Shown here one piece after another: positions 6,613 through 63,747 of a DNA stretch of 64,000 nt (position 1 is its first letter; the number at the start of each line of letters is the position of its first letter). The notes under the pieces were generated by a model that had not been told where the DNA came from, ran no database searches, and saw nothing but the letters and a program-made list of their open reading frames with translations. Source of the stretch: a virus (lineage: Duplodnaviria; Caudoviricetes); IMG/VR virus record IMGVR_UViG_3300043104_000334; one strand, given 5' to 3'. A program made the translations under genes and the position numbers.

Positions 6613-6645
6613 ATTATATATGTGCTCAGTCAAGTTTCTTCTTCA
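6613..6645 (-). promoter_or_regulatory. Putative promoter TGAA-N19-CATATATAAT upstream of the RNAP cluster
   Basis: Copy 1 of 5 of the bipartite motif; overlapped by a 19-bp imperfect inverted repeat (6621-6639 / 6645-6663). Confidence 0.65.
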
Positions 6646-6666
6646 GAAAATTAACTGAGCACACTA

Positions 6667-6699
6667 TATTTTACAGGAGGAAAACCCTCCTGTAAAATA
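6667..6699 (-). terminator. Hairpin terminator after the giant adhesin gene
   Basis: Perfect 14-bp stem TATTTTACAGGAGG / CCTCCTGTAAAATA, about 10 nt after the stop codon. Confidence 0.7.
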
Positions 6700-6708
6700 G
6701 TTGCTTAA

Positions 6709-9700
6709 TTAGTGTGTACCAGTTGTTGTCAAATCAGTCGTACTCGTATTGTATGCGTCATATACAACAAGAGGTGCCCATTTTGAGTCAATTTTGGTTA
6801 CTACTGTTCCGGTGGAAGAATATACATCAACTCCATTCTCACCTACTGTAATTGTATTGTTGTTACAATTATCTGGCTTATTGTCATTGCTGTAAAGCGT
6901 AATCTTATTATCTTTTCCACCATTCATCAGTCTCGCATCATATTCCAATTCATAGACACTACCCTGAACTGTAATACCAGCAAATGCAACAATAACCGAA
7001 TTCGGATGATCATTCTTAAGTTTTTGATTAGCTGTTAAGACTTCAGTCTTGGAAGTTGCTGCCCCTGCATATGTAGCAATTGTTGAGCTAGGTAAATTCA
7101 ATGTGAAATACCAACGCTGAGATTGCTTCATGAAATTAAGAGCTGTTACACCATTTCCTGTAGACCCACTCATTGCAGTACCGCCGAGCTGATTTGTACC
7201 AGTCCCTTCGGATGCATCTCCATAAAGATAAGATGAACCAATGTAGTCCAAATCATTACAATCAAGAACGATCTTTGATGCAGTACCGATATAATCATAT
7301 TTCTTATATGCAGCTTTATTTATGCCCCAATAAGATAATACAGTATCAGTATAACTCTCTTCAGTCGATGTTGTATTACGACGAGCCGCTTCAGTAGTAA
7401 GGTCAATAGAAAGACCTGTCTCAGTAAGCTTCTTCACATTAGCAGCACTGGTGTCACTATAATATAAAGTGTATGAACCAGAGCTACCAGCATAGAGGTC
7501 AATCGCATAAAACTTACCCTCACTGTAATCATATAGATAATAATGAGGAGTAATTGTCATAACGGCCGTTCTCGTATCTTCACCACTATTCTCATCCGCA
7601 ACTGATGACGGACCATCATCTCCACCAAATGAACCACCCTCAAGTGTATTGATACCATAATAATTACCAATAGTCTCAATATCAAAATAGGATGCATATC
7701 CAATCTTCAACTGTTCTGTTGAATAGGTAGAGTTACTCTGCAGAGAAGCTGCTGTCAATGGTAATGTACCCCACTCGCCTGCCTTACCTAATCCAGTTAT
7801 ACTACCATACCGATAATTGGTTACAGACAATGTAGCGTGTGATTGTGTCTGGGCCGTATGTCCTCTACTTGATAACATAATATCTGCAGTCGTAGTAAGA
7901 ATCTTTACTGGGTAACTCGAATCGACATTATGAACAACATTAGGAATAGACCATGAAGTTAGTGCTTTCTTAAATAATTCTGAATATCTAAAATCACCAA
8001 CATCTTCAAGAGCAAGATTTCCAATACGCCCAACAACCTCAATTGTAGTTGAACAATAAGTTGTATTATCTGCTACAAGGTTATAATCTCTTGTAATGTT
8101 TCTATTCTGATATTGATCAAAGTCGATATTCGAGCCAGCATTAATAGCTATCGTAGCAAATGTTACTGTTGCCGTAGTTGTTTCTTCAGCTGATGTAACA
8201 ACTTGGAATGAGTAATCAAGACCGTACTTAAATTCCGAATCACTTGACAGTGCATTTTGTAGAGCATCTGTCGCTCCATGGAATACACCTGAAGCTGCGT
8301 TAGTTAAACTACCATCTGAAGCTTTAGAAACAGAACCAGTATTGTTCTCAAGTGTATTACATCTATACTCAGAAAGATTTATCCAAGTATTTGCAGGTAT
8401 GGTGACAGTATCACCATTGACCTTTGTACCAATAACCGGGAATGTAAACATAACATCACGTTCTGCAACCCATCTGCCAGTATTCATATTGTTAGTATAA
8501 CCCTTAGCATTTGAGTTGATTTTTCCGGTATTAGAGTCAGCACCATTATAAGTGCATCCAACACCTAGAGATGCTGTAGCTACGCCGGCAATAGAGTCAC
8601 CATACGCATCATAGAAGTCACCGAAATCAGTTATCCATAAATGGACTGTATTTCCTATGACAACGTAGTTATTTTTGTTTGCTTCAGCAACGCCCTGCGT
8701 ACTTACTCGCATATCCTCGCCAGTCTCATCCTCAGCAGGACCGTTTCCATCATAGTCTCCGTATCCATTTCCAATTAACTGAGAATACTGAGAAGATACT
8801 GGGTCATGAATAAGAACATCGTTAAGAACACCATTATCAGAATCTGGTGAAAGCTTTGCTACATACTCAGTTTTTCTATCAGCCGTAATCTTTGGAGCAC
8901 TTACCTGTTCACTATCAACACACTGCTGACACAATGATTGATTACTGAAATCAAGTGCAAGATTATAATAAACATTCACACCGATAGGTGAAGTGTAAAC
9001 ACCATTTTTCGCAGTCTGAATCATTGAAATGTTACTAATTACTAATGCAGTACAATAATTAATTGTTGAACCATCACTAGTGTTTGTGTAACCTGAAACA
9101 TTTCCTGCTCCATTGTTGCTGACATTGGATCCACTACTTATGAGACTACCATTCAAGTATCTATTTACAGTAAAGCTTCCAATATTCGGATATGCAAATG
9201 TTGTATAATAACCATTGAATGTTTGTGTCTGTGCCGTTCCCTCACTCTTCGACACAAAATTTGTTCGTCCCGGTACTGTACTTGTTATTGGTACTGTTCT
9301 ACTATAACACGTTGCTACTATTATGTTGCTATTCTGTGACCATTTTTCACCATTTGTTACATATCCAGATAAGGTAGCCTTTGATAAAGAATCAATAAAT
9401 GATTCTCCTCTAATGATACCGTCAGATGAATATTTTACAGATGGATTAGAAGATACATGTCCAGTATAACCAACGTATAATGTTTTTGCATCGTTAAGAT
9501 TACCAACGTCATCATACTTATCCCAAAATACATTAGTGTTTAGTGTATTCTGCAATTCTTCTGCAGTACCGTATTTATTTGCATGATTGCGGTAATAAGT
9601 CTGTCCGTTCTCAGTAAATCCAAAATTAAACAGATTTATACCACTGTCGATAGCATAAGACTCAGCAAGAATATTCTGAGAACCAACGTTCGCAACACTA

Positions 9701-12700
9701 ATAGACATTGCATCTGAAATAATGTTAGCAGTATAACCGTTTTCTACACTGTTAGCACATTCCCATGCATTTACAACATGAAGTGCCTCTGTTAACGCTT
9801 GGTCGTCTGTTAAAACGTCACCAATCTTACTCTGGTAGTTTGTGTTACCATGACTGCTGTCCGCGTTCCAATGTGCTGTCTGCTTACCATAACTCTTACT
9901 AATAGACACACTATCAATTGCTCCACTATTCGCAAGAGTTCCTACAGAGTTGTCTGCAACAACAGTCATACTGATAGTACAATTTCCTAACCAATAATGT
10001 TCAGCACCATTGTCTCCAGACACAGTTGTAGATGTCCATCCATCTCCACTCTTGTACTGCGGACTTTTGAATTTCGTAAACCAAACTCTACCATTCGAGC
10101 CATTATAATCACCATTGGCTTTCCACATATCAACAGAGATATTTGTGTTGGAAGATGCTTGGCCTACAGCGCTACTCGATATTAAACTCGTATTTACGCT
10201 AGCTATTTCAGCACGCTCAAGTGTATAAACCTTAGCACTTAACAACTCTCGATAAGCATATACATCAACAGTCTCAACAAGTGAAAATGTAAATGTTTTT
10301 GTAGCCGGGTGAATTATATTCTGCGTGGCATGTGTTACTGTACAACCGTATCCAGCTGTATATCCATCACACGTTAATGTATCAGCTGTATAAGTGTATC
10401 CACTATAGGTTTTTGTACCAATCTTTACTGAACAAGCAGTAAGTAAATATCTTTGCTTATTACTTGTTGATGTTGGAGCTGTAACAGACTTTGAAGCTAC
10501 GCTTCCATCCCCTGACGCAGTCACATCACCAGTTGAACAATTGAATGTCACCGTGTAGTTACATGTATGCCCAGATGCTCCCCATGTTGGGTCTACGCCA
10601 CCACTAGCAGTAATTGTAAGAACTGTACCGCAACCTGCACAAGCACTAGAACTCTTCTGTTCTCCATTACCAGCTGACCACTTAGCAGAAGCAGTAAATC
10701 CAGCCACAGAAGTCGAATATGTTACACCATCCTTCGTGCATGTATGTGTCTGACCTGTTGCCGAAGCCATTACACCACCGCGTGTCGATTGCGTACCTGT
10801 CGCCCCACATGTATCACATGACCATGTATTAGTCAGACCGTTAGCATCTGCCGTGCCACTCTTTTCAGTCACATTCTGCGATTTTGAACCAAGTGTGTGC
10901 CCCGGACAACTAAGCGTACATCTTGCATTACTATCCTTACTACTAGCCCAAATATCAGTGATAGTTACCTTGAACTTTATAGTACGCGTGATAGCAGCAT
11001 TCTTGTTTTGTGCATTCTGAGTATCACTCTTATTGTTCTTGTACAATGCGTCTGACGTTTTTAACTGTTGACCATAGGCATGTATACGCCCGCTAAGGTC
11101 AATAGAACAAACACGACCACCTGCAGCTACTGCAAGGTTTTCAGTACTAGGGATTCCCTCAGATACATTCCAATCAGAAGCTAGGCCATCGTATGTGTTG
11201 CTCTTTGTTCCAGCACAGTTAGCGACTATCTCTGCATAGGCTTCAATATCACTTGTTGTACTGAATGTCCAGTCAATATGGTCAACTACATCCGGTCCAA
11301 CCCAGTCATTATAACTGTGACCAACATTATTGGTGTCATTTTCCAAACACCAGTAAGCATCACTACAATCTTCTATATCTGTTGGTATTACACTCGTTGA
11401 ATTAATTGTCACCGTGAACGAAGCAGGTGCTGACATATGACCAGCCTTTTCAGTCTTACTAGTACTCTGAGCAAGCTCTGATATATCAATATAATACTGT
11501 TGTTTTAACAGCTTTTTCAGTTCCGTTCCAGTAACAGTAAATTTATACGTACTAGTAGCACCCTTACTTGATGATGCACTAAACGACACATACGTACCAA
11601 TTGCTTCACTGTGCTTTGTTACTTCATCATATGTAGAAGAAGTACTAGCTCCTCTTATGTACATTCCCTTTATCAGACCGCTTACTCTCGGAGTCGGGGA
11701 TTTATCACATATACTATATTTTGGTGTTGCTTGTACAACTACTGTATATGACGCACTAGTATTCACGGCTTCTAGAGTATCATTATCAGCACCCAAATAT
11801 AATGCAAATGTTGCATTTTGATACTCTCCTTCAGTCAAGACTGTCTCTTCTTCGTGAACACTACTGAGTACACTGAAAGTATAGGATGTCGGACGGTCAC
11901 CAGTACTAAAGCAGTTATGACTTATTTCATTACCTACATCGAAATACTTGTCATAGTACAATATCTTGTTGCCAGTAATTTTTGCAGCTGAAACTGAGAC
12001 ACGCTTATCCTCAGAATCAGTATGCTTTTTAATACTAACTGAGAACTTTACGGAGCTAGCAAGAACAGTAGCATTCTTATTACCTTTTACCTTCTGAATA
12101 AATGATATTGGGTTCTCCTGATTAATTAATTGTTTAATCGCTACTTCATTTGCAGTAAATTGTAATGTTGCTGTCTCACCATAACTTCCAGATGCACTAA
12201 ACTCAATTCCTGATATCCCATTTGTACTCTTAAACTTGTATGCAGTTATCATACTTTTTGCATACGTTGTGTTTTCAGAATCACATGTTCCTTTGTTATA
12301 CTTGTTTGTATTGATTGATATGGAGATATCGTAACTTCCACTTCCAGTTATATTGTCTTTTGTACTATCTGCTGCATCAAAATACATAGTAAACTTAGTT
12401 GACTGTGCAGTACCAGTATACAACTTTGTTTTCGTAAGATGGTTTGTACTTTTTATGGAATAACTAAAATCACCAGCACTCGTGGCTTTCCAGCAGTTAT
12501 GGTTTGTTTTGCTGGTTGCTGACCAGTAGGGATCTACAGAATCACCGTTTTTATCTGTTGGCGCATCAACAGCTGTTACACTGTCGGTACTCGTCACACT
12601 TACAGTAAACTTAAGGCTGTGTGATAATACAGTACAGTCAGCATCCTTGACTCCAAAACTCAATTTAATACCGTCGCCTTTATCACCAAGGTAACCAGCA

Positions 12701-14076: not shown

Positions 14077-14079
14077 AGT

Positions 14080-15081: not shown

Positions 15082-15082
15082 A

Positions 15083-15544: not shown

Positions 15545-15547
15545 ATC

Positions 15548-16069: not shown

Positions 16070-16071
16070 AA

Positions 16072-16488: not shown

Positions 16489-16499
16489 CTCCCTCGATG

Positions 16500-16970: not shown

Positions 16971-17028
16971 TTTCTTCGCTCTCCTTACAAATTATAGGTT
17001 GATATAAGTTATTAAAATAAGTTATATC

Positions 17029-17048
17029 AGAGGGACCGAAGTCCCTCT
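17029..17048 (-). terminator. Hairpin with C(UUCG)G tetraloop after the candidate major pilin
   Basis: Minus strand reads AGAGGGAC-TTCG-GTCCCTCT. Confidence 0.7.
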
Positions 17049-17080
17049 AAGCTGATTTGACTGATCAACGCAGTTACAGA

Positions 17081-17776: not shown

Positions 17777-17918
17777 ATTATATGTCCTCCTTAAAAGTAT
17801 TTTGCCTAGCCTACAATTTTGTAGCGGATAACTTTAATACAAGAATACTTAAGGATATCTTTAATACACGTATACGTAATTTATATCAATGCCTATGTGG
17901 GTAAGCAGTGATACCAGT

Positions 17919-18155: not shown

Positions 18156-18156
18156 T

Positions 18157-21981: not shown

Positions 21982-22033
21982 ATCTTTAGTCTCCTCTCTA
22001 AGTTTCCTTAGACATACGTATTTATGCTAGACC

Positions 22034-22059
22034 TACAGGAAACAATTTTGTTTCCTGTA
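22034..22059 (-). terminator. Hairpin terminator
   Basis: 11-bp stem TACAGGAAACA / TGTTTCCTGTA, 15 nt after the stop of 22075-23436. Confidence 0.7.
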
Positions 22060-22074
22060 AGCTGTCATCCTTAT

Positions 22075-23436
22075 TTAAACTACACAGATTAAATCCCACT
22101 CTGACTTCTTTACCTGATGCTTAAGACTTGCAATCAGTGGACGATTCACAGACATTCCCATAGAGTCGATATCTTCCTGCAAGGCAATATACAAAGCTGC
22201 AGATACTGGCGTAGGCACATCACCAGAACTTTCAGCTGTGTCAAAATCAGATATGGCTTTCTTTGTTTTCTGATAAGTGCCAACTTCTGTCATGATAGGA
22301 GCAATCTGTATATAGAGTTTCCTACATGCAAGAGCAGACTTTAAGTCTCCGTTAATGTGCGCAATTTCTTTACGCTTCTTGTTAATGTCTTCATACGTAA
22401 TTGTAAGATACTCTTCTTTCTTCTCAGCCTTCCCATCAACAGTAACACCGATTTCTCCAACCGGAATAGCATCCCAGTCTTCTTTATTGACGCTGTATTT
22501 CATGGCATCAACAACAGGTGCATTCTTGGTTGTGCGCAGTATAGATATAGCCTCATCAAATGCTGCGATTACATCAGCAGCCATCTCCGGTACAGGTGTA
22601 TCTCTCCAGGCATCTCTAACTTTATCAGCAGTAAATGACCGTCCGAATTTATCGAATAATCCGGAAATCATATCGTACACCTTGCAGTATGCTTTTGCAC
22701 TGTCACTTTCATCGTCAAGAGCCTTAAGTCCATCAATCTTAAGATTGATTTCTTTAAGTGTAAGAACAAACTGTTCTTTCTCAGGCATAGCAACAGTTTT
22801 TACGTTTGCTGCATTCAAGAGCATCCGACGTTTCTCAGCATCTTTCTCGGTCATAAGTCCATTGTCAACGAGAGCCTGCAGATAGATTTCTTCTGCATTC
22901 TCAACACCATTGTCCCGATCATCATAATACTGTCTGCGGAGGACATCACCGAGTCTTTCCTTGGTATCCGTTGTATTCATAATCTCTCCGTAACGAGTCT
23001 TGAACTTAGCACTCTCCTCAGGTGTAAACTCGTAACCCTTTGCAATAAGCTGGATGTACAACTCAGCCGCACAGAGTTTAAGCTCCTTGTATTTCTCAAT
23101 CCATGTATTTGAACCGACAAGATAGCCAACATTAGCATCTACACGTTTTGCCCAGTTACCGACACCCATAATGAGGTTGGCTGCACATAGCTGCTTAAAG
23201 TAAGCTATGTCAGACTTAATTTCCTCAAACTCATCATGCATCTTTGTAAACTCTTCATCAGAGTAACATCCGAGGTTTAAAGCCTCCTTAAGAACATCAG
23301 TACCAATGTTCTCGCCATTCTTAATTTTCATAAGAGCCTGCCCTACAAGTTCAGCGCATCTCTTATCAAATATAAGATTACCGAAAGTTACTTCATCGTC
23401 TCTTAATTTGAAATTGAAACTAGGATTCCAACCCAT
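22075..23436 (-). CDS. Helical hypothetical protein with C-terminal duplication; monocistronic
   Basis: 453 aa; GGAGG RBS; flanked by a promoter-motif copy and a terminator. Confidence 0.8.
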   Translation of the reverse strand: MGWNPSFNFKLRDDEVTFGNLIFDKRCAELVGQALMKIKNGENIGTDVLKEALNLGCYSDEEFTKMHDEFEEIKSDIAYFKQLCAANLIMGVGNWAKRVDANVGYLVGSNTWIEKYKELKLCAAELYIQLIAKGYEFTPEESAKFKTRYGEIMNTTDTKERLGDVLRRQYYDDRDNGVENAEEIYLQALVDNGLMTEKDAEKRRMLLNAANVKTVAMPEKEQFVLTLKEINLKIDGLKALDDESDSAKAYCKVYDMISGLFDKFGRSFTADKVRDAWRDTPVPEMAADVIAAFDEAISILRTTKNAPVVDAMKYSVNKEDWDAIPVGEIGVTVDGKAEKKEEYLTITYEDINKKRKEIAHINGDLKSALACRKLYIQIAPIMTEVGTYQKTKKAISDFDTAESSGDVPTPVSAALYIALQEDIDSMGMSVNRPLIASLKHQVKKSEWDLICVV

Positions 23437-23495
23437 GTTTTAAACCCTCCATGTAAGAATACTCAGCAGGTTAAGAGACTCATCTCTCCCTTACA

Positions 23496-23528
23496 CTGAT
23501 ATATGATTTTCAGTTAATTTGTGTTTCA
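23496..23528 (-). promoter_or_regulatory. Putative promoter TGAA-N19-CATATATCAG
   Basis: Copy 2 of the motif, about 60 nt upstream of ATG 23436. Confidence 0.6.
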
Positions 23529-23636: not shown

Positions 23637-24046
23637 TTAACATGTCAGCCATTTTACTGCTTCGGTTTCCTGCAGTGAACCTTTGCCATATCTTTCTGCA
23701 ATATCACTAATTCTCTCTTGAATGGTCATATCCTGACCGGCAGGACCCGTAGTGATGTCTGCATAATTCAAAAGCCGCAGCATTGAAGAGTCATATTCTG
23801 TCTGCACAATACTGTGGTAACGAATCTCATTCCAGAACTTGTATCCTTGCTCTTTTAATAAGAATCCACCTTTCTCTGCATGTTCTTCCGGTCTCTTGGA
23901 AAACTCATAACCAATATCATGTAACATACCAAGTATGAACGCTTCATCCGGATTAACGGGATATACATCGTGTTCTGTTTCTGCCATCTTTTTCATTTTG
24001 TTGCTACTGACAAGCTGTGTCTTAATCTATCTTCTGAAATCCTCAT
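23637..24046 (-). pseudogene. HD-domain phosphohydrolase, apparently frameshifted near its 5' end
   Basis: GMLHDIGY...YH...YAD in 23637-23996. The segment MRISEDRLRHSLSVA (first His, GGAG RBS, ATG 24046) is 50 nt upstream and out of frame. Confidence 0.6.
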
Positions 24047-24129
24047 TTGCCTGTCTCTCCATTAATTAAGTAATTAACCTAAAGTCTAAAATAGGCATTC
24101 TATCAGCTTAATGTTTTGAACTGATAAAG

Positions 24130-24203
24130 TGGACCATATAGGACTTGAACCTATGACCAACCGGTTATGAGCCGGCCGCTCTCACCAACTGAGCTAATGG
24201 TCC
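24130..24203 (-). tRNA. tRNA with CAT anticodon, probably tRNA-Ile2; CCA not encoded
   Basis: GGACCATTAGCTCAGTTGGTGAGAGCGGCCGGCTCATAACCGGTTGGTCATAGGTTCAAGTCCTATATGGTCCA folds as a cloverleaf; GGACC acceptor stem resembles Firmicutes Ile2 rather than fMet. Confidence 0.9.
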
Positions 24204-24209
24204 TGCTTG

Positions 24210-25159: not shown

Positions 25160-25203
25160 TGATTTCCTCCACTTTAAATACAGTAGTTAAGACCACTATA
25201 TTT

Positions 25204-25225
25204 AGAATGGGATTTCTCCCATTCT
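25204..25225 (-). terminator. Hairpin with GAAA tetraloop after the TadA-like gene
   Basis: AGAATGGGA-GAAA-TCCCATTCT. Confidence 0.7.
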
Positions 25226-25230
25226 TTATT

Positions 25231-38496: not shown

Positions 38497-38519
38497 AATA
38501 GAGTCTCCATCGTATAATC

Positions 38520-38556
38520 AGTCTTGGGAGCATAAACACTATACACTCCCAAGACT
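38520..38556. terminator. Inverted repeat, possible terminator
   Basis: 11-bp stem AGTCTTGGGAG / CTCCCAAGACT. Confidence 0.5.
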
Positions 38557-38565
38557 AAACTGTAA

Positions 38566-38793
38566 TTATAATTCTTTAAGCATACGATACATGCTTATAA
38601 GGATTAAGCATGCTACCAGAACTGCCACAAGAATGATTGCAAAATAGACACATGCAATAGACAGCGGAACATTCATTCCAGTAGACATAGCCGCGATAAG
38701 CATCGCGCCACATGCAATAAACCCTACGGCAATGATGATTGTTAAAAACATCATCAGCATTATGTTAAGTATATGATTTCTTTCGTCTCTCAT
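38566..38793 (-). CDS. Small two-TM protein
   Basis: 75-aa hydrophobic ORF with RBS. Confidence 0.6.
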   Translation of the reverse strand: MRDERNHILNIMLMMFLTIIIAVGFIACGAMLIAAMSTGMNVPLSIACVYFAIILVAVLVACLILISMYRMLKEL

Positions 38794-38806: not shown

Positions 38807-39028
38807 CTATATGTTCATGCCAATACATACACCGTAATTAGGTCTCCATTTGCTTCCTGCCAACTTTTCACTGTAGACATAATCCGGACAATTGCGCCGC
38901 AACACTCTTTTAACCTCGTTGATATCCGTACATGTAAGGCTAGCAATGCGCAACGGTGTGTAATGCTTACACTGGTAATACATGCAAATTAGTCCTTTCT
39001 TTTCAGTCCATGTTAATCCTTGATTCAT
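38807..39028 (-). CDS. Small HTH-like protein
   Basis: YTPLRIASLTCTDINEVKRVLRR; AAGGAGG RBS. Confidence 0.55.
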   Translation of the reverse strand: MNQGLTWTEKKGLICMYYQCKHYTPLRIASLTCTDINEVKRVLRRNCPDYVYSEKLAGSKWRPNYGVCIGMNI

Positions 39029-39163
39029 TTTTGTTTCCTCCTTAGCTTTATGCTTTAAATATGTTTTACAACAGTTTAATGTATACTATTAAGATAATAC
39101 ACATTTTTGTGGACAAAAATAGATGTCCACAATAGTTACATAGAGCAAATATACACTCTTTCA

Positions 39164-39196
39164 TTTATATATGTTACTTGAATCCGTATGTGTTCA
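39164..39196 (-). promoter_or_regulatory. Putative promoter TGAA-N19-CATATATAAA
   Basis: Copy 3 of the motif, intergenic; a hairpin (39107-39132) lies in the leader. Confidence 0.6.
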
Positions 39197-39200
39197 GGTT

Positions 39201-39989
39201 TTAGATATTAGCCTCAAAGAGTTTGTACAAATCCTCGTTAGGTAATGCAAATACAACTTTTTTGTAAAGCTTGCCATAAGACTGCAATGTCTTAGCAAAC
39301 ACTTTTGCAACAAACTCCGGATTGTTTCTAAATACACCACATCCCCATGCGCCGAGGATTAGGGTATCACATCCGTTAAGGTAGGGTAGCGTCACTATCG
39401 CTTCAATACGATTCGTAATAGCAAGATCAACATATCTCGCTTTCGATATTGGTACCCTATTACAATTTGGTGCCGCACACGATATCACATCAAACAACAC
39501 TGGTGCTGTAATGCTACCTCTCGCCATTGTAAACGGGACAGCTGGACTGTAAATTACTTCATCTAGATATGTCTCCGGCATATCCTTTCTCTTTGCACGA
39601 GCCTTGTAAATAATCATTGAATCCAAGATAGGATACAATCCCGACACATGACAAAGTGATTCTTCCTGCGCATAGGAACCTTTTAAGAACCCACCACCCG
39701 GCTTAAAATAGGATGCGAAATTGAGTACACAGATTTGTCTGTCTCCCTCACCATAACAATCTAACGCTACCTCATATGTTGGCTTTCTTATAAACGAGAT
39801 GTGCGTCTTGTCAGGAACAGAATCCGCTTTTGTGTCTATATACTTCCACTCATCCTCTGTAATAAGCTGACCGATTCTAGCAAAGGATTTCTCTTTTGAG
39901 TTCTCAATTGCTGCTCTAAATACAGCATGATTGTTTATCATACCCAACCATACTTCAGCTTGTTTTGCATTATCTTCTTTCTTAGACAT
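39201..39989 (-). CDS. TIGR02452-family macrodomain (bacterial PARG-like)
   Basis: VLNFAS..PGGGF.KGS.AQEESLC, DVISCAAPN, LILGAWGCGVFRN. Confidence 0.9.
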   Translation of the reverse strand: MSKKEDNAKQAEVWLGMINNHAVFRAAIENSKEKSFARIGQLITEDEWKYIDTKADSVPDKTHISFIRKPTYEVALDCYGEGDRQICVLNFASYFKPGGGFLKGSYAQEESLCHVSGLYPILDSMIIYKARAKRKDMPETYLDEVIYSPAVPFTMARGSITAPVLFDVISCAAPNCNRVPISKARYVDLAITNRIEAIVTLPYLNGCDTLILGAWGCGVFRNNPEFVAKVFAKTLQSYGKLYKKVVFALPNEDLYKLFEANI

Positions 39990-40002
39990 TTCATGTCTCC
40001 TT

Positions 40003-40545
40003 TTAAATTTCATTTTTATTGACCCATTCTACCGGGCACGAACAGTTTCCATAATACCAGTGCAGGAACATATTTCTATCAGTAACATAATCTATTTTAC
40101 CCTGTTTATACAACAATTGCAATGCTGCTAGAGCCCTAGCATTACAAACTGGAGTCTTGTCCGGATTATGAAATAAATCATAAAAGGAACCCTGACTCAA
40201 GGCATAATCAATTTGTTTTTCACTGAGACTAGTAAGGTACAATAAATCATGACACCCCATCGGCAAGTAATCTTTGTAAGGAGAATCATCGAGTAATTTC
40301 CATATGTCTCTCATTGGATTACCTTTTGAATCTTTTACATAACATGTAGCTAGGTTTCTTGCCTGATAGATACCAGATGCAGACGATACATCTATACACG
40401 GTTCCATAAATGAGAGCACAGAACTCTCAATCTCTTTCCTGCATAATATTTTGCTTACCTCAAGAGCATCCTTATCCCATTGTACATCAACTGTTCTTGT
40501 ATAAAGCTGATTATTCTTTATGAAATAAATACATCTCTTAGCCAT
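40003..40545 (-). CDS. DarT1-associated NADAR-like (DUF6977-like) protein
   Basis: MAKR..F, IDVSSAS..ARNL, FYDLFHNPDK..VCNARALA resemble that family's LEISSKS..LSAFNL and FTDIEFNP.KSINCQA motifs (recalled, unverified). Confidence 0.5.
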   Translation of the reverse strand: MAKRCIYFIKNNQLYTRTVDVQWDKDALEVSKILCRKEIESSVLSFMEPCIDVSSASGIYQARNLATCYVKDSKGNPMRDIWKLLDDSPYKDYLPMGCHDLLYLTSLSEKQIDYALSQGSFYDLFHNPDKTPVCNARALAALQLLYKQGKIDYVTDRNMFLHWYYGNCSCPVEWVNKNEI

Positions 40546-46968: not shown

Positions 46969-47424
46969 TTATATCTCTCCATTCTGTTGCAACTCTTTAT
47001 CATATCCAAAATAGAACCCATTGTCCATGCAAGCATCTACAATATGCCGAAGTACATCTGTTTTAGTCATAGCCCACGTAAATTCGTGGTCCATATAGAA
47101 CTTTCCAGCAAACAAATACAACCTCGTAAGAGCATTGTCTAATCTGCCAACAATAAGCTCCTTCGTTTCGGCATCTGTTTCTACAAAGGTATCATCAGCC
47201 GTGACATCTTCAATAAGCTGAAGAACTTCCATGATAGGCGTAAGGACCAACGGGTCTTTACAGTCTTTCACAAGCTGTCTTAACACCATACTCAATGACT
47301 GCTCAACCTGCCCGAGCTGTTGCTTCCGAATAGTTTCTCGTGTGTTTGCATGTAATCGCGGAATTACTCTCTCAAGTAATATGACCGCGCTCAACACTTC
47401 ATTGTTGTCCTGACTCATCTTCAA
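46969..47424 (-). CDS. Hypothetical protein
   Basis: ORF track, GGAGG RBS. Confidence 0.65.
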   Translation of the reverse strand: MKMSQDNNEVLSAVILLERVIPRLHANTRETIRKQQLGQVEQSLSMVLRQLVKDCKDPLVLTPIMEVLQLIEDVTADDTFVETDAETKELIVGRLDNALTRLYLFAGKFYMDHEFTWAMTKTDVLRHIVDACMDNGFYFGYDKELQQNGEI

Positions 47425-47761
47425 TTACCTCCTCCATGCTATCCTCTTCGACGTCCTCGTTACTGTAGGTAAATCTTGTGGCAACACCCTTTACCTTTGT
47501 CAAACTACTTGTTATAGATGACCGTGTAGATGAGTCGATAAGCGTTATAATGCCTAATAGAATCACACAAGTCAAAGCTTCCTGCCAGTCTACAAATGTC
47601 GACAACTCAAATATCTTAGCTACAACTGACCAAGCAAGAAATATAAGTGATACGAAAAAGGCGTCTAGTGTATACCGCTGTGTTGGTACGATAAGCGCGT
47701 CAAAGAATTCTTCAAGCGCATCCATTATACCATCAATGAGTATTTTTAAGAAATCATTCAT
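47399..47761 (-). CDS. Two-TM membrane protein
   Basis: Hydrophobic segments; directly downstream of promoter-motif copy 4. Confidence 0.65.
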   Translation of the reverse strand: MNDFLKILIDGIMDALEEFFDALIVPTQRYTLDAFFVSLIFLAWSVVAKIFELSTFVDWQEALTCVILLGIITLIDSSTRSSITSSLTKVKGVATRFTYSNEDVEEDSMEEVIEDESGQQ

Positions 47762-47772: not shown

Positions 47773-48168
47773 TCAATCTCTTCTTTCAATTATATATGAA
47801 AGTCCAGTATAACTGTTTTCATATTCTGAACAGAAAAATGTTATTTTACATTCAGGATACGTAAAGTAGTATCTGTAAGATGGACAATTATCTTTAGTAA
47901 AGCTCACGTCAATATAGGAAGAAGTTATATCCTCTGAATAAACAGAATAACCATCTGCTTTCATATTAACGTAAACATTACTAATACCATTTATTGTGGT
48001 AAGCCCAACATTGTCAGATAATACTTCATAGTAGGTATCAGTGTACTCATCAACAAGATAAACTGTGCCATTTGTTTCAATAGGCACATTGTTAATATTG
48101 TACGCCGTGATACCTACACATAAGACAGTTGCTACTGTGAATAATAATTTACGTAATATTCTTATCAT
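47773..48168 (-). CDS. Exported hypothetical protein
   Basis: N-terminal signal/TM. Confidence 0.65.
   Translation of the reverse strand: MIRILRKLLFTVATVLCVGITAYNINNVPIETNGTVYLVDEYTDTYYEVLSDNVGLTTINGISNVYVNMKADGYSVYSEDITSSYIDVSFTKDNCPSYRYYFTYPECKITFFCSEYENSYTGLSYIIERRD
47789..47821 (-). promoter_or_regulatory. Putative promoter TGAA-N19-CATATATAAT inside the 3' end of 47773-48168
   Basis: Copy 4 of the motif; 47778-47798 is identical over 21 nt to 6602-6622. Confidence 0.55.
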
Positions 48169-52397: not shown

Positions 52398-52405
52398 AAT
52401 TCACC

Positions 52406-53425: not shown

Positions 53426-53459
53426 AGTGTCTCCTTATAGAATTTGTAAATGCGAAATG

Positions 53460-53843: not shown

Positions 53844-53845
53844 GC

Positions 53846-54775: not shown

Positions 54776-54783
54776 AATTCCTC

Positions 54784-56954: not shown

Positions 56955-56986
56955 CTTTTCGATTCTCCCATCTTTTCGATTTGATT

Positions 56987-57412
56987 TTATTCTTCAGCAT
57001 AGCTTCGATAAATAGTGCTAAGCATTTTCATTGCAGTCTCATTTAAGAACGTTCCTGCATCATAGTCAAACACATAATCGAAGTTGTACGTGAATTTGTT
57101 TCCATTATACATGGCAGATACAATAGGTTGCCCACCCTGCAACTTAGCCCGAACTTTCATAAGAGCAATACCAACGAAGTTCTTTGCAATCTTATGTTTG
57201 CACCGTTCACAATAGCAACATCCAAGCATCGAGTCATGTATGTGTGTCGAGTCATAGACAAGCATAGACTCACCGGTTTCGAGAAGTTCATTCCGATACT
57301 TTTCGTTACCAAGACACTTAAGGTAAACTACCCTAATAATGTCCTTGACATTTGTGTACTTGTCAAACTCACCATCATGAACCAATGTTTTACTTACTTT
57401 AACTATGTTCAT
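56987..57412 (-). CDS. Truncated NADAR-like protein
   Basis: K...NEKYRNELLETGESMLV...HDSMLG..KNFVGIALMKVR. Confidence 0.7.
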   Translation of the reverse strand: MNIVKVSKTLVHDGEFDKYTNVKDIIRVVYLKCLGNEKYRNELLETGESMLVYDSTHIHDSMLGCCYCERCKHKIAKNFVGIALMKVRAKLQGGQPIVSAMYNGNKFTYNFDYVFDYDAGTFLNETAMKMLSTIYRSYAEE

Positions 57413-57423
57413 CAGATCCTCCT

Positions 57424-57822
57424 TTAATAATCATATTTATCACCTGCATTGACTGTAAGCTTACCATCAGAATCAATTGTGATAGAGTACATTCTACTAT
57501 TATAATAGAACAATGCACTATACCCATTTTCCTCTGTGTAGTACACCCAATTACACTCAGCAGCTACATCATAAGGGATACCATAGACTTCAAGAACTTT
57601 CTCATTTTCTGTAAGCACACTCGCAATGAAATTATCATCCGCATCCGTTGTACTTGTGATGTCAATCTGATTAGCCTCAGTGTCTTCTGCTACATAATCA
57701 GCATACTGATTTCTCTGCTTCGATTGATAAACCCATAAAGCAAAACAGATAGTCGCAAATACAAGAAATACGATGATATCCCTTATTACTTTTGTATTCA
57801 ATCTAATTTCTTTACGTTCCAT
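57424..57822 (-). CDS. Small membrane-anchored partner of the lysozyme 57837-59105
   Basis: TM followed by YADYVAEDTEA. Confidence 0.7.
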   Translation of the reverse strand: MERKEIRLNTKVIRDIIVFLVFATICFALWVYQSKQRNQYADYVAEDTEANQIDITSTTDADDNFIASVLTENEKVLEVYGIPYDVAAECNWVYYTEENGYSALFYYNSRMYSITIDSDGKLTVNAGDKYDY

Positions 57823-57836
57823 ATTTCCTGTTCTCC

Positions 57837-59105
57837 TTACTTTAATATATTCTCGTACACAAATATTGCTATACCACACCGCTTCTCCCAGCCACCAATT
57901 TCTTCACGTTCGTCATAACTAACCTGACTTGCGCAATAATGTGTCCTGCCGCGTTTGTACTGAGATTTAAGTGCACACCGCTCATCCTTACTTGCAAAAT
58001 AATATGTAGCCTGTTCAACACTATTGGCATTTTCATTAAACGTTTTAGCATCACTTGCCTGATAACTAGCTTTCATATACGTCAATATATATTCACATTG
58101 AAAGTTTGCATCGTACCACTGTACTCCTTTATCAATTGCCGCTTGAACTATTTCCTTTGCAGTTCCTCCATCCCACTGTAATACACCTATCGCTTTGCCA
58201 TTCTTAAAATCACCAGTTATCTTATTATTAACTATTTTAGCAGCTCCTCCACTCGCCCAATTAACTACTTCCTCATTTGACATTGGGCCATTGCTGCTAG
58301 GTGTTTCTTCTGCACCTTGTCTACATCCCATATAGTACCCACACTCAGCATAGAAGTTACCAAGAACCCCGGCTATAGCATTTTTATTATATCCAGCAGC
58401 AGCTAACGTATTTGTGACAGCTACCATATTTTTTATTAAATCTGTCGCACCGTCTGGCGCTACAAGCAGTGACGTCATATAATCCTGACCGTTATCATCT
58501 ACTGTAGCACCATGTAACGTATTTGTTTGATACAACCCAGGATATTTACTATCCCAATTTGTATTAGTAAATGAAATTGTTATAGGGTCTCCTGTAAGTC
58601 CAGAGAAATCACCAACGCCAAGACTTGTACCACCTGATGAAACAGTTGATGAAGAACTGGTACCGGCTTCCGCAGTAGCCATATCAGCATCTTCCTGCTG
58701 AACATCACTGCTCATAGTAAGCGTAACAGTTGTTGTGCCATCAGCATTTACTGTCACGTAAAATAACTTTTTATCAAATCCATTCTTTGAATTGCTAACA
58801 CGAGCCGTAAGAGACGTATACTGGTCTACAAGTTTGTCCAATGAGACATTGGCGGACACAATAAGGTATATTGTTATGACTACAATCAATCCAACAACTA
58901 CTAAGCTGATAGTCGGATTAAATAATATAAATGTCAGTATACTAGGCTTATGCTTTGTTGGACCTTTTTCAGCTATCTTAGCATCCCTAGCAGCCTTTCT
59001 CGCTTGTGCTCTCTTTTCCCACTTTGAATAAACCTTTACAGACTCGGTTATTGTCTCCTCACCGTGGTCAGTCATGGTAGTGACTTGTCTCATTTCATAC
59101 TTCAT
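57837..59105 (-). CDS. Membrane-anchored phage-tail-lysozyme-family muramidase
   Basis: AIAGVLGNFYAECG, AIGVLQW, FASKDER. Confidence 0.8.
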   Translation of the reverse strand: MKYEMRQVTTMTDHGEETITESVKVYSKWEKRAQARKAARDAKIAEKGPTKHKPSILTFILFNPTISLVVVGLIVVITIYLIVSANVSLDKLVDQYTSLTARVSNSKNGFDKKLFYVTVNADGTTTVTLTMSSDVQQEDADMATAEAGTSSSSTVSSGGTSLGVGDFSGLTGDPITISFTNTNWDSKYPGLYQTNTLHGATVDDNGQDYMTSLLVAPDGATDLIKNMVAVTNTLAAAGYNKNAIAGVLGNFYAECGYYMGCRQGAEETPSSNGPMSNEEVVNWASGGAAKIVNNKITGDFKNGKAIGVLQWDGGTAKEIVQAAIDKGVQWYDANFQCEYILTYMKASYQASDAKTFNENANSVEQATYYFASKDERCALKSQYKRGRTHYCASQVSYDEREEIGGWEKRCGIAIFVYENILK

Positions 59106-59113
59106 ATTATCAC

Positions 59114-59464
59114 CTATTTATTCAGCAGACTACGGTACATTATCTCTAATGTAGTAAGCCTTCTGTTGTCATCGACTGATGGATTTACAAACGTACTTGG
59201 TGAGTATGTAACAGCATCTAAGAATCCATTCTTAGAGATAGACCTGACAAGCGCTGATGCTGTTTCTTCATTTGTAACAATACAAATGTCAAGCGCTTCA
59301 TCATAAGCTGCGATAAAATGTACAACAGCCGGAAATGTATAATCGGACACTTCTTCCAACTTACATGTGTCATCGTAGACCGTAAGCTTTTTGTTTATGT
59401 ACACACCAGAAATTTCATAAGCCGCTAATTTCTGCGTATCATCATTCCTTAATAGTATTCTCAT
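59114..59464 (-). CDS. Hypothetical protein
   Basis: 116 aa with RBS. Confidence 0.6.
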   Translation of the reverse strand: MRILLRNDDTQKLAAYEISGVYINKKLTVYDDTCKLEEVSDYTFPAVVHFIAAYDEALDICIVTNEETASALVRSISKNGFLDAVTYSPSTFVNPSVDDNRRLTTLEIMYRSLLNK

Positions 59465-59485
59465 ATAGTTGCCCTCATCCCTTAA

Positions 59486-59914
59486 TTATTCTGCATTAGT
59501 GAGTTCGTTTATTGTATCAGAGTCGCCAATATATTCATCATCGACATATAGCATTGCATAGAACTTATCATCAGTTATCCAGAAACTAGCATATGCATCG
59601 TTATCAAAGATTAGCATACCGTTTACTGTATTATCATCGTTGCTTTCTCTAACATTAGATATTTGCACAAATGAGTATCCATAAAGTGAGCTAACATTGT
59701 TTATGAAGTCACTAACATCCTGTCTGCCTTTTATGGAATCAGCCTCTAAACTATCGTAATAATTGAATGTGTCTGTTGTGCTGTCTTCACTTGATATGTA
59801 TGCATCATATGTATTTTTATACTCACAATATTTGTGGTAGCATATGACTATAGCAATTATATTAAGTACCATAAGGATACCCAATATAACTAGACTCTTG
59901 TACTTGTCTTTCAT
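59486..59914 (-). CDS. Small membrane-anchored partner of 59911-60777
   Basis: TM followed by YDAYISSED; ATGA-coupled. Confidence 0.7.
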   Translation of the reverse strand: MKDKYKSLVILGILMVLNIIAIVICYHKYCEYKNTYDAYISSEDSTTDTFNYYDSLEADSIKGRQDVSDFINNVSSLYGYSFVQISNVRESNDDNTVNGMLIFDNDAYASFWITDDKFYAMLYVDDEYIGDSDTINELTNAE

Positions 59915-60777
59915 ACGTAAGACCCCCTGACTATCTTTACAATCTTACCCTTCCATTCTGGATGGCATACAGATGTTCCAGGATTACCGTGCCATGAACC
60001 TGTACCACTTGGATACCATGTAGGAACACTTGTATTGTTTTTGTTTACGAGAAACTCTATTGTATTCATAGTGTCTGCACTCGCTTCATGTCCCCATACT
60101 GTCCAGTTGCTATCACCACTACTTTTTATTTCACCCACTACACATGGTATTATTACAGTGCCATTAGACGTCTCAACATAAACATCAATTGTCTGTCCGA
60201 CATCAGCTATGCCACCATTATCAATCCATGATACTGCAACAACATACCTACCATCAACGACACCAAACCCTTCATCATCAAAAGCTGTTACATCACCGAT
60301 CGTACTATCCCAATTAGGATATTTACTTTTTCGCCATATGTACTGTGGGGATGATTGACTTGTTATCATCTGCCAACCCATATACGTATAACAAAACTTG
60401 CTGTAAGGACAGCTACTAAAGTCTATTGTATCACCATCTACGATAAGTTTGGTGTCACCTGAACTAGATTCAGTAGTACCAGCTTCCGCAGTAGCTGTAT
60501 CAATATCTTCCTGTTGTATATCACTACTACTTGAGGTAAGTGTCAATGTTGTAGTTCCATCAGCATTTACCGTAACATAGAATAATTTCTTATTAAATCC
60601 ATTCTTTGAACTAGTAGGCTTACTCGTCAATGACGTGTACTTTTCGATTAGAGTGGAGTCTTTCACCTGTATGGAGCAAACTAAAGCAATATATGCAGCT
60701 CCTAATATTAAGACTAATAATACAAGCCTTATTAAAATAGGAGACACTTTATGCTTTCCATTATTTTGATTATTCAT
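59911..60777 (-). CDS. Membrane-anchored putative cell-wall hydrolase (3D/DPBB-like C-terminus)
   Basis: N-terminus shared with 57837-59105; GRYVVAV..VGQTIDV..IPCVVGEIK..IEF. Confidence 0.55.
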   Translation of the reverse strand: MNNQNNGKHKVSPILIRLVLLVLILGAAYIALVCSIQVKDSTLIEKYTSLTSKPTSSKNGFNKKLFYVTVNADGTTTLTLTSSSSDIQQEDIDTATAEAGTTESSSGDTKLIVDGDTIDFSSCPYSKFCYTYMGWQMITSQSSPQYIWRKSKYPNWDSTIGDVTAFDDEGFGVVDGRYVVAVSWIDNGGIADVGQTIDVYVETSNGTVIIPCVVGEIKSSGDSNWTVWGHEASADTMNTIEFLVNKNNTSVPTWYPSGTGSWHGNPGTSVCHPEWKGKIVKIVRGSYV

Positions 60778-60848
60778 ATTTGTACCATAGAATGCAATGC
60801 ATTTCCTTTATACGCAATTGAATAGACTATTTAACAATAACCTACTCA

Positions 60849-60869
60849 ATAGGGAGAAATTCTCCCTAT
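60849..60869 (-). terminator. Hairpin overlapping the VirB4-like stop codon
   Basis: ATAGGGAGA / TCTCCCTAT. Confidence 0.5.
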
Positions 60870-62950
60870 GAACCGGACATAACATTTTTCTCTTTTACCG
60901 GTGTATTTACTTTATACTTCTTAAACTTGCCATCATCGTTCTTTTCAACCTCGACCTGAATAATAGGATAAAGATTCTTGTTCTGCATATTGTTAATAAA
61001 CACAAAACAGTTCTTGTACCTGTTTGAACTTCCGGGTATCTTTATGTGGTCCTCGAGATGCTTAAGCCCAAACTGCTCAATAACAACTTTACGTGCATCA
61101 AGCGTAAGCTCACCAACAAACAGTCCTCTTGTATTTTCAATAAGAGGCTTGGCAATTTCACTATTCTGCAATGCCTGTACTGAATTACCCAAGAGCAAGG
61201 TATCCTGATTCTGTGACCGTCTAAGCGTATACTCCTGAACGTACATCTTCATGATTTCATCAGAAACAACCTGTGACTCTTCAAGTATTTTAAATGTACG
61301 CTTACCCTCAGCATACTTTCTTGTTGTGAACTCACCATTAAGCTTTGACATATACAGAAACTTAAGTCGGAATAAATCCTCATCAATGTCTGAAATTGTT
61401 GCATCTCCAAGGATACCAAAGTCAAATGCTAATGTGTCACTGTGCAGGATTTTGGCGTAATCAAACTCACGCTTAAACACATAAGACTTTGAACCTGTTG
61501 CAGACATAAACATCCTGAGTGTTCCGATAACAGTCTTATGAATGTTATACTGAGCACGCTTCTGTGGAGTAAGGTATTTCTCAAACCTATCAAACACTTC
61601 ATAAGGATTCAACGATTCCGTTGTGTTCCATGAGTTCATGTTTGTAGGTATCGCACCAATCGAGATGTACAATGTATCCAAGAATTCATCAAGCAATTCT
61701 TCAAGTTCAAGAAGCGTTTCTCTATCCCGAACACCAGATAAGATAATCATCTGTTCCTTTGAGAACTTTACTCTTGATTTGAAATAGGCTTCTGCATTAT
61801 CCTGCGATGTATCTTCCTTGTGCATAACGAAACTGTTGATATACTCAGTTGACATAGGACGCAATGATACTGTATAGCCATTTGTAGCGTTGATGAAATT
61901 GGTATACTCATTACCTTTAATATCCATCATAACACAAGCAGAACCATTTTCATAAGCTGACTGTGCCATATTCATTGCGAGGACAGTCTTACCAACACCT
62001 GATGGCGCTACACAATACATATTACGTGCAACAGTTATCTCACTAAAGTCAATATAGTAAGGCGTACCATTAAGCACATTCTGTCCGACATAATATCCTG
62101 TCTTATCGTTGTATGAGCCGCAGTTGGGAACAATCTGTGACAAAATGACATTTGTTGTCATAACAGGTGTTGTACCCTTGAGGTCATAGTTCTTTCCACC
62201 AAACATTGAAATGTACTCAAGGTCACTACGAATAGAACCATGTGCTGGCATATAGATACATCCCATGGAACCAAGCATATCGAAGATAATCTTCTCTGCG
62301 TTGTTAAGGGTTTGAATATCTTTAGCCCGAACAATAAGGTACATTCGAGTGTTCTTCAGTTGTTTGCCAGACTCAGCAACTTTTACTGTATATAGACACC
62401 TCGCTGACCTTTCACGCATTCTCTTTGATGTAAGGTCAGAATCAAGGTTATTTTCCCACATGTTAATACGACTTTTTAAACCGGAATTATTAGGGTCATA
62501 ATCATAATTACTATTCTTGAATGTTGCATCAAGTATAGCTCGATTGCCCCTATCACGAAGAGCAGAGTTAAGCACTCCTAAAAGTGTAATAGGAGTGCTT
62601 GTTCCCAACTCATAGATTTGTATGATTGTTGACATGTACAGCTTTGTAACATACATGTTATTCGTAATAAGAATCCTGTCTCCGATGTTATCTGGAATCT
62701 TACCTCTGTCTTTCATCGTAAGACTAACGAGATAAGAAATCCACATCTTCACCCATAAGAATCTATCGGGCTTTACTTTGCCCTCATTACGAATCTCAGC
62801 AGCTTTCCTAACTGATTTCCGTATGTTCTTCTGAGTCTTTTCTGCGTCTACTTCGCCATACTCGTCATAGGCAACCTCAACTTTAGAAGCCTCTTCAATG
62901 TTATTACTCCTCTGCTTTGAGTCAGCCTTTAACTCATCCCTAAGCGCCAT
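60866..62950 (-). CDS. VirB4/TraE-like conjugation (T4SS) ATPase
   Basis: G..YVGQ..NGTPYYID, RNM.VAPSGVGKT, MDIKGNEY, ILEESQ, LRRS..LLLGNS. Confidence 0.8.
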   Translation of the reverse strand: MALRDELKADSKQRSNNIEEASKVEVAYDEYGEVDAEKTQKNIRKSVRKAAEIRNEGKVKPDRFLWVKMWISYLVSLTMKDRGKIPDNIGDRILITNNMYVTKLYMSTIIQIYELGTSTPITLLGVLNSALRDRGNRAILDATFKNSNYDYDPNNSGLKSRINMWENNLDSDLTSKRMRERSARCLYTVKVAESGKQLKNTRMYLIVRAKDIQTLNNAEKIIFDMLGSMGCIYMPAHGSIRSDLEYISMFGGKNYDLKGTTPVMTTNVILSQIVPNCGSYNDKTGYYVGQNVLNGTPYYIDFSEITVARNMYCVAPSGVGKTVLAMNMAQSAYENGSACVMMDIKGNEYTNFINATNGYTVSLRPMSTEYINSFVMHKEDTSQDNAEAYFKSRVKFSKEQMIILSGVRDRETLLELEELLDEFLDTLYISIGAIPTNMNSWNTTESLNPYEVFDRFEKYLTPQKRAQYNIHKTVIGTLRMFMSATGSKSYVFKREFDYAKILHSDTLAFDFGILGDATISDIDEDLFRLKFLYMSKLNGEFTTRKYAEGKRTFKILEESQVVSDEIMKMYVQEYTLRRSQNQDTLLLGNSVQALQNSEIAKPLIENTRGLFVGELTLDARKVVIEQFGLKHLEDHIKIPGSSNRYKNCFVFINNMQNKNLYPIIQVEVEKNDDGKFKKYKVNTPVKEKNVMSGS

Positions 62951-63042
62951 AAATATAGCCTCCTTCAAAAACAATTCTTAGCTGAATAATCCAATAGCAC
63001 TGTGCTCATCTCATCAGCAAATTCGTATTCATGTTCTAAGCT

Positions 63043-63657
63043 TCATAAAGCTTCATCAAATTCTTTAATGTCTAAGTTGCCAGCCAGAATATGATTTCCG
63101 CCGACCCAAGAACTTCCATGAACTTTCACGTTTTCAGATAAACGTGCAAACTCATGTATTTGGGCGTCTTCAGAAACTTCTGCATTGTCAGAAACCTTAG
63201 CATAATCGTACACCCATGCATAGCCGGATACCTTTGCATTACCGGATACTTTTGCATGTCCAAACACAGCAGCGCCATCTGACACGACTGCTGAACCATA
63301 GACATGTGCATCACCGTCAACCAGTGTCTTGTCTGTCACATGTGCAGAATCACTGATGTATGCACTTCCCCATACTCTTGCATCACCATCAACACATCCA
63401 CCGGAAATCATAGCTTTACCACGTACTTCCGCATTACCAGCAACTATAGCATTGTCAAATACTGTTGCAGACTCGTAGACCCAGCAGTTTCCACTCTGGC
63501 TGAGATTACTTGGCGACTCAATGTATCCGCCTATATCCCCATCCATAACGTCTTTGAAATTCTTTACCGCCTGAATCTGATAGAGCGTACGATTGCCAAT
63601 TGTCAAGGTTCTGTCCTTTAATAAAACGTACTTGATATCTCCACTAATTTTACTCAT
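63043..63657 (-). CDS. Left-handed beta-helix (hexapeptide repeat) protein
   Basis: LYQIQAV..GDIGGYIES..NLSQSGNCWVY followed by (A.V.G.A.V) repeats. Confidence 0.85.
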   Translation of the reverse strand: MSKISGDIKYVLLKDRTLTIGNRTLYQIQAVKNFKDVMDGDIGGYIESPSNLSQSGNCWVYESATVFDNAIVAGNAEVRGKAMISGGCVDGDARVWGSAYISDSAHVTDKTLVDGDAHVYGSAVVSDGAAVFGHAKVSGNAKVSGYAWVYDYAKVSDNAEVSEDAQIHEFARLSENVKVHGSSWVGGNHILAGNLDIKEFDEAL

Positions 63658-63714
63658 TGCTTTGTACCTCCACTGTACAATAATTGCTATTACGTTATCA
63701 TTATTTCCTTATCA

Positions 63715-63747
63715 TTTATATATGCTCATTTTGGTATATACCTTTCA
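63715..63747 (-). promoter_or_regulatory. Putative promoter TGAA-N19-CATATATAAA
   Basis: Copy 5 of the motif, about 57 nt upstream of ATG 63657. Confidence 0.6.

Follow-up and report, generated by a model that had tools for sequence, protein, structure and literature searches.

Introduction

Promoters read by the sigma70 family of factors are bipartite, with two boxes about 24 bp apart from centre to centre and a spacer that is fixed in length (16-19 bp between the hexamers) and free in sequence. The sporulation factor sigmaG of B. subtilis recognises GHATR-17/18-CATXHTA. Bacteriophage T4, which transcribes its genes with the host RNA polymerase, combines a MotA box at -30 with a sigma70 -10 element in its middle promoters and uses late promoters of the form TATAAATA that are read by gp55. 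Here, we analyse a recurrent bipartite sequence, TGAA-N19-CATATAT, in a 64,000-nucleotide stretch of viral DNA (IMGVR_UViG_3300043104_000334; hereafter the window), which corresponds, in reverse complement, to ~89.5-153.5 kb of a 193,287-bp metagenome contig from the Joint Genome Institute (JGI; Ga0484756_000004) and has near-identical copies in at least 16 other assemblies. The window carries genes for a highly divergent, full-length RNA polymerase beta subunit, a DnaB-like helicase, RNase H, a TraG/VirB4-like ATPase and several cell-wall hydrolases. Judging from the distribution and conservation of the sequence, the sites very probably constitute a promoter class private to a family of giant, one-strand-coded gut elements.

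Phages with their own multisubunit RNA polymerases provide a second point of comparison. The polymerases of the jumbo phages phiKZ and AR9 are split and lack an alpha subunit, and jumbo-phage early promoters consist of a single AT-rich, highly conserved block of ~10 nt near -10, located before operons (PMC7598289). The element discussed here shares with phiKZ and AR9 the possession of such a polymerase and an obvious AT-rich block upstream of operons; however, its sites carry an additional, obligatory upstream box at a distance of 19 nt and thus do not conform to the early type, and its beta and beta' subunits are unsplit. The late consensus sequences of phiKZ (TATG) and AR9 (AACA-N6-TA) are unrelated to that of the element.

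Results

A two-box signal with a single spacing on the coding strand

All open reading frames (ORFs) of at least 100 aa that tile the window lie on the minus strand, and so do all five copies of TGAA-N19-CATATAT. Dinucleotide-preserving shuffles yielded a mean of 0.16 copies, and five or more were reached in none of 100 shuffles. TGAA stands exactly 19 nt upstream of 5 of the 11 minus-strand occurrences of CATATAT (binomial P ~1e-8); the shorter form TGAA-N19-CATAT has six minus-strand matches in the window, and spacings of N17, N18, N20 or N21 before CATAT have none on that strand. Coding sequence occupies 93% of the window, yet four copies are intergenic; the fifth (47821; copies are named here by their highest coordinate) lies within the final 26 nt of the preceding ORF, and the C of CATATAT precedes the next start codon by 37-145 nt. 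A preliminary description of this stretch had proposed five minus-strand promoters with invariant 19-nt spacing, four of them intergenic and each shortly upstream of a gene start. Its counts, positions and implied enrichment ahead of genes on the coding strand are all borne out, as is the exact 21-nt identity between 6602-6622 and 47778-47798. The exact spans of the copies (6616-6645, 23499-23528, 39167-39196, 47792-47821 and 63718-63747, minus strand) end 3 nt earlier on the downstream side than first given. The complete conserved sites, with handles beginning in L and C5 denoting contigs of the same element or its relatives, are as follows:

6607..6645, minus strand: copy heading the RNA polymerase operon, sequence cTGAA-N19-CATATATAATTGAAAG; orthologues in L019, L021, L023, L024 and at C5:70264
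23490..23528, minus strand: copy 69 nt before a 453-aa gene (22075-23436), with the most divergent box, CATATATCAGTGTAAG
39158..39196, minus strand: copy beginning 4 nt past the stop codon of gene 39201-40013
47783..47821, minus strand: copy within the terminal codons of ORF 47773-48168 and 37 nt ahead of gene 47399-47761
63709..63747, minus strand: copy 67 nt before gene 63043-63657; this same site appears in L086 at 9911

Conservation exceeds the two boxes. Among 24 collected instances, the signal reads (T)TGAA-N19-CATATAT-W-A-N-TGA-W-A-G (W, A or T), or in compact form (T)TGAA-N19-CATATATWANTG, and continues into a purine-rich stretch. The bases of TGAA are present in 23, 24, 24 and 23 instances and those of CATATAT in 23, 24, 24, 24, 24, 22 and 23; the A two positions past the last T is found in 23, and the TG directly after it in all 24. 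The base following TGAA varies (A8 C4 G6 T6), and 23 of the 24 strong sites share one spacer length. The signal is asymmetric, its boxes have no potential to pair with each other, and no Rfam family overlaps the sites. A palindromic site was considered and rejected, as the partial palindrome ATATGAAA...TTTCATAT occurs in copy 47821 and is not common to the other copies.

The signal is conserved in diverged relatives

C5, which was scanned over its entire length, is a 215,949-bp contig of a 2.8-Mb Lachnospiraceae metagenome-assembled genome (MAG). Its beta subunit is 37% identical to that of the window, and the contig is syntenic with window positions 1-63 kb at protein identities of 24-70%. 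The C5 form of the signal is TTGAA-N19-CATATATTANTGAWAG (also given as TTGAA-N19-CATATATTANTGA), and TGAA-N19-CATATA has eight matches on its coding strand versus one on the other strand. When sites were scored against a 20-position consensus, all 17 C5 matches with a score of at least 16 fell on the coding strand, whereas the shuffled 64-kb window gave about one match per 64 kb over both strands. Of the 11 matches with at least 17 of 20 positions, nine are intergenic in a contig that is 94% coding, and each of the 11 stands 29-166 nt ahead of a start codon. The strict pattern of 11 bases occurs seven times in the 216 kb of C5 and 12 times in the remaining 2.58 Mb of the MAG, corresponding to a ~7-fold higher density in the element; the reversed pattern, used as a control, has six matches in the whole MAG. 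The loose pattern TGAA-N19-CATAT was discarded as a measure of specificity, being too unspecific (122 matches in the MAG, no enrichment in C5).

The copy ahead of the RNA polymerase operon can be followed furthest. It is found ~0.5-0.7 kb upstream of the beta gene in L019-L026 (beta 77-79% identical), L023 (61%) and L024 (42%), and its C5 orthologue at 70264 has the -35 box TTGAGG and a hairpin that occupies the spacer. Among these orthologous copies, 12-20 of the 20 box positions are identical compared to 3-8 of the 19 spacer positions (11 of 19 in the closest pair); given that this latter identity equals that of unconstrained AT-rich DNA, we treat the spacer as free. The motif stands ahead of the polymerase genes in all relatives examined with beta identities as low as 37%, which fits a co-evolving polymerase-promoter pair. 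No clear copy was detected near beta in clades with 28-37% beta identity (L027, L028, L032, L037), whose intergenic DNA is too scarce to define a motif of their own. Copy 47821 likewise has an orthologue, C5:99579, within the 3'-terminal part of an orthologous ORF. Beyond the window start, the near-identical contig L087 carries two further copies at 11255 and 17180, namely TGAA-N19-CATATATAACTGAATG directly after a Peptidase_M23 gene and TTGAA-N19-CATATATAATTGAAAG ahead of the next gene block; the 10 kb past the window end, represented by L086, contain none.

Enrichment, fixed spacing, bias in strand and position and conservation in diverged relatives together argue for a genuine, family-specific promoter class. 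The same sites could in principle be bound by a regulator or by a partition or recombination protein, or act at the RNA level, for example as processing sites, and the 16-bp downstream block is indeed long for a -10 region. Such roles would sit poorly with the strict strand-specificity of the asymmetric signal (5/5 in the window, 17/17 in C5), with two boxes at a fixed distance around a free spacer that neither pair nor match an Rfam family, and with positions 29-166 nt before start codons and mostly directly after hairpins or stop codons; we regard a function other than that of a promoter as very improbable.

One site heads the operon of the element's RNA polymerase

The preliminary description had also suggested that one of the promoters drives the RNA polymerase genes, and the position of copy 6645 agrees with this proposal:

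1..6552, minus strand: operon under copy 6645, comprising genes for a 140-aa acidic protein, beta, a YdjM-like protein, an alpha-like protein (281 aa) and the first part of beta'
2080-6117, minus strand: beta, 1345 aa
6130-6552, minus strand: first gene of the operon, 140 aa, acidic C-terminus, no family match

The beta' gene lies just past the window start, and Pfam matches show both large subunits to be unsplit. The intergenic gaps within the operon measure 12-130 nt and contain no motif copy before L087:11255. Copy 6645 itself is preceded, at a distance of ~25 nt, by a hairpin without a T tail (6670-6700, minus strand). In C5, the gene for the 140-aa acidic protein is duplicated in tandem (69327-69758 and 69740-70171).

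Predicted transcription starts and available RNA sequences

The predicted transcribed start is purine-rich in all copies. A start at the G/A of the invariant TGAAAG would place TTGAAN at roughly -35 to -30 and CATATA, 18 bp away, at roughly -12 to -7. The resulting start zones are:

6608..6611, minus strand: predicted start zone of the RNA polymerase operon promoter, at the G/A of TGAAAG
23491-23494, 39159-39162, 47784-47787 and 63710-63713, minus strand: equivalent predicted zones of the other four copies

Four metatranscriptome runs from animal guts, each from a different study, yielded short contigs at least 99% identical to the window that are scattered over positions 29-49 kb at a depth of 2-6. 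These contigs (Logan) carry no molecule ends, strands or levels, and values for the bin 39006-39672, upstream of the predicted start of copy 39196, were low in all four runs and, like the contig that crosses copy 47821, are not interpretable. As an observation in its own right, nucleic acid of the element, either RNA or carried-over DNA, recurs in gut metatranscriptome samples.

Comparison with sigmaA and sporulation promoters

Written as TTGAAN-18-CATATA, which is equivalent to TGAA-N19-CATATAT, the signal falls within the spacer range of sigma70-family promoters and shares their length-fixed, sequence-free spacer, whereas its conservation extends nine bases further, through the invariant TG. 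As proposed at the outset, it is distinct from sigmaA promoters (TTGACA-17-TATAAT), and sites of that type occur at or below chance: we counted 19 on each strand versus 15.7 in shuffles, nearly all of them within genes, and sigmaA-like sites in the motif-less gaps of the window and C5 were not enriched (26 forward versus 23 reverse). Between positions 5001 and 25000, sigma70-type sites even numbered fewer than in shuffles (53 versus 71.4 +/- 8.6), a deficit that may reflect avoidance of host-type promoters.

The resemblance to sigmaG promoters suggested by the preliminary description is partial. Aligned as TGAANN-17-CATATAT, the element's sites fit the 17-18 bp spacing of sigmaG, and both boxes begin like those of sporulation promoters (TGAA.. 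and CATA..). The defining positions of both boxes differ, however: the -35 box retains only (T)TGAA, with the T of GHATR present in just 6 of 24 sites, and in the -10 box (CATATAT rather than CATxxTA) positions 6-7 are A (22/24) and T (23/24) instead of TA. The -10 sequence CATATATWA is in fact nearer to the mother-cell boxes of C. difficile, CATATTAT and CATATAAT, than to sigmaG, although the -35 sequence TGAA matches neither the ATA of sigmaE nor the AC of sigmaK (PMC3789822).

These likenesses raise the question of whether host RNA polymerase with a host sporulation sigma, of the sigmaE/K or sigmaG/F type, could read the sites and switch on the operons during host sporulation. The MAG that includes C5 does contain sigmaG-like, pro-sigmaE-like and other sigma genes as well as genes for small acid-soluble spore proteins (SASPs), one of which is preceded by CATATAATA, a comparison that covered two SASP genes and was uninformative overall. 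Recognition by a host sporulation factor would leave the invariant downstream A-N-TG-A block without a counterpart in sporulation consensus sequences, and the strict motif is ~7 times denser in the element than in the remainder of the MAG, where its count is near the reversed control (12 versus 6). Furthermore, the sites head operons for replication, polymerase and secretion-type functions, not spore functions, and we therefore judge sporulation-dependent control by the host quite unlikely.

Search for the factor that recognises the sites

Searches of the window and of all 216 kb of C5 detected no sigma70-family gene. A six-frame search of C5 for Sigma70_r2 gave no match, compared to 13 in other contigs of the same MAG; a hidden Markov model built from the sigmas of this MAG had no match among the ORFs of C5 or the window (best E 0.7); and none of the 31 window proteins scanned against Pfam contained a sigma domain. 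One weak sigmaE-like match (C5 107712-108761) reflects a hydrophobic N-terminus and was dismissed as spurious.

C5 and other relatives do encode proteins of 220-250 aa that combine a helix-turn-helix resembling sigma region 4 (sigma4), a domain corresponding to the C-terminal domain of the polymerase alpha subunit (alpha-CTD) and a C-terminal module with four invariant cysteines (4-Cys):

C5 199253-200014 and 200031-200819: tandem paralogs L017 and L018
L069:10001-10702: further sigma4/alpha-CTD/4-Cys protein
L067:5502-6191: further sigma4/alpha-CTD/4-Cys protein

The N-terminal part matches sigma region 4 of FliA, SigA and RpoE chains (E 2e-5 to 2e-3). The middle part is recognised as alpha-CTD by Pfam (37-62 bits) and by a PDB profile (E 3e-16), and its predicted structure superposes on the alpha-CTD of B. 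subtilis with a TM-score of 0.89. A motif-type promoter (L069:8827) stands two genes ahead of the gene in one of the relatives. Attempts to find the gene in the element itself, by profile and word searches as well as through contigs and cluster listings, returned copies from the relatives only, its expected location lying beyond the examined DNA of the element. We consider the protein a candidate that could read the TTGAA box, a lead rather than evidence. The same profile search also returned many long proteins, reaching ~1000 aa or more, in which as many as 12 alpha-CTD-like repeats stand in tandem:

P0067, P0071, P0072, P0083 and P0091: alpha-CTD-repeat proteins

In a further explanation, a highly diverged element factor would re-target the host core enzyme to the sites, and the element's polymerase would serve other, as yet unrecognised promoters. 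Viral models are available in the divergent sigmas gp55 of T4 and gp28 of SPO1, and in the appropriator/activator pair AsiA/MotA of T4. Two-box geometry is a typical feature of sigma-dependent recognition, and the sigma4/alpha-CTD proteins of the relatives could dock on the host polymerase or, like MotA, replace -35 reading. With the motif absent from most intergenic gaps, there may be another promoter class; yet a k-mer contrast of the motif-less gaps of the window and C5 retrieved only Shine-Dalgarno-like and A-rich words, and no second recurrent motif that could serve the element's polymerase. The lack of any sigma region 2 match in C5 and the persistence of the motif ahead of the polymerase operon also speak against re-targeting, which we consider unlikely.

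Discussion

The reader that we favour, and regard as probable, is the element's own RNA polymerase acting with a specificity factor that is encoded by the element but not recognisable as a member of the sigma70 family. The promoter would consist of a -35-like (T)TGAA box, 19 unconstrained bases and a 16-bp block, CATATAT-W-A-N-TGA-W-A-G, covering the -10 region together with the start. If transcription began in TGAAAG, the two boxes would fall near -35 and -12, a geometry resembling that of promoters for bacterial-type holoenzymes. The sites would divide the unidirectional gene array into operons of ~6-17 kb, one of them encoding the alpha-like, beta and beta' subunits, and a polymerase operon under its own promoter would establish a self-sustaining, host-independent transcription circuit. 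As in T4, recognition of the upstream box may fall to a separate, element-encoded DNA-binding protein instead of a full sigma, and the T4 late box resembles the TATAAAT within the element block CATATATAAATGA (TATTAAT in C5); recognition by the element's own polymerase would, however, set the system apart from T4.

Several points weigh against this assignment. A self-driven polymerase operon needs a first round of polymerase, which is unproblematic for a stable plasmid and unexplained for an infecting phage. The -10 block starts with CATAT like the clostridial sigmaE/K sporulation boxes (PMC3789822), so that reading by a host sigma keeps some probability. Specificity for the element was gauged against one host genome, the MAG to which C5 is putatively binned, because the genome of the element's own host is absent from the comparison. 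The motif is missing from 68 of the 82 gaps in the window and C5, and the k-mer contrast described above offers no second class to fill them. The examined sequence amounts to ~84 of the ~193 kb of the element, and a sigma or other factor could lie in the remainder. Finally, one RNA contig (47349-47819) spans copy 47821, as a non-promoter role would allow, and the low-depth contigs mapped no starts.

A bolder version of the favoured assignment, which we put forward tentatively and hold to be rather unlikely, is that the alpha-like/beta/beta' core has lost the normal sigma contacts and, in a giant plasmid-like element, works host-independently with a split specificity apparatus. TTGAA would then be read by the free-standing sigma4/alpha-CTD/4-Cys protein, and CATATAT...TG by a second component or by the core itself. 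As the polymerase operon carries the same promoter, such a system would act autocatalytically and be passed on together with the element.

The conserved promoter offers a practical handle on this polymerase system: it defines the DNA for in vitro transcription or reporter assays, the 39-bp site lends itself to pull-down searches for the recognising factor, and the promoter copies partition a one-strand genome of ~190 kb into operons. If the element's polymerase is the reader, the pair would represent a naturally orthogonal, bacterial-type polymerase-promoter system, and a case in which -35/-10-like geometry has survived without a recognisable sigma.

Additional features of the element

The beta family comprises ~46 sequence clusters, which share 44-79% identity and come from contigs of 150-270 kb; searches of INPHARED, PLSDB and IMG/VR found no members of this family and no close DNA or protein relatives. 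One-strand coding holds for 74 of 74 tiling ORFs in the window and 252 of 252 in C5, and the window shows a uniformly negative GC skew.

Among the remaining operons, the block headed by copy 47821 continues into the genes for RNase H and the DnaB-like helicase, and gene 63043-63657 is followed by those for the TraG/VirB4-like ATPase (60866-62974) and for cell-wall hydrolases. Copy 39196 has a leader of 145 nt, succeeded by the small ORFs 38807-39028 and 38566-38793; this unusually long leader (39029-39166, minus strand) contains the inverted repeat tgtggaca...tgtccaca. Copy 23528 sits in a block of ~4.5 kb (20.8-25.2 kb) that is missing from C5 and also includes a tRNA-Met gene (anticodon CAT; 24129-24203, minus strand) in the gap 23997-24209.

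Most intergenic gaps contain a GC-rich hairpin that is not followed by a T run:

60778-60865, 38497-38565, 25160-25230, 21982-22074 and 16971-17080: hairpin-bearing gaps

Matches to classical intrinsic terminators numbered 14 versus 9.0 +/- 3.0, so that enrichment is not clear, and the gap hairpins suggest non-standard terminators or non-standard structures for RNA stability.

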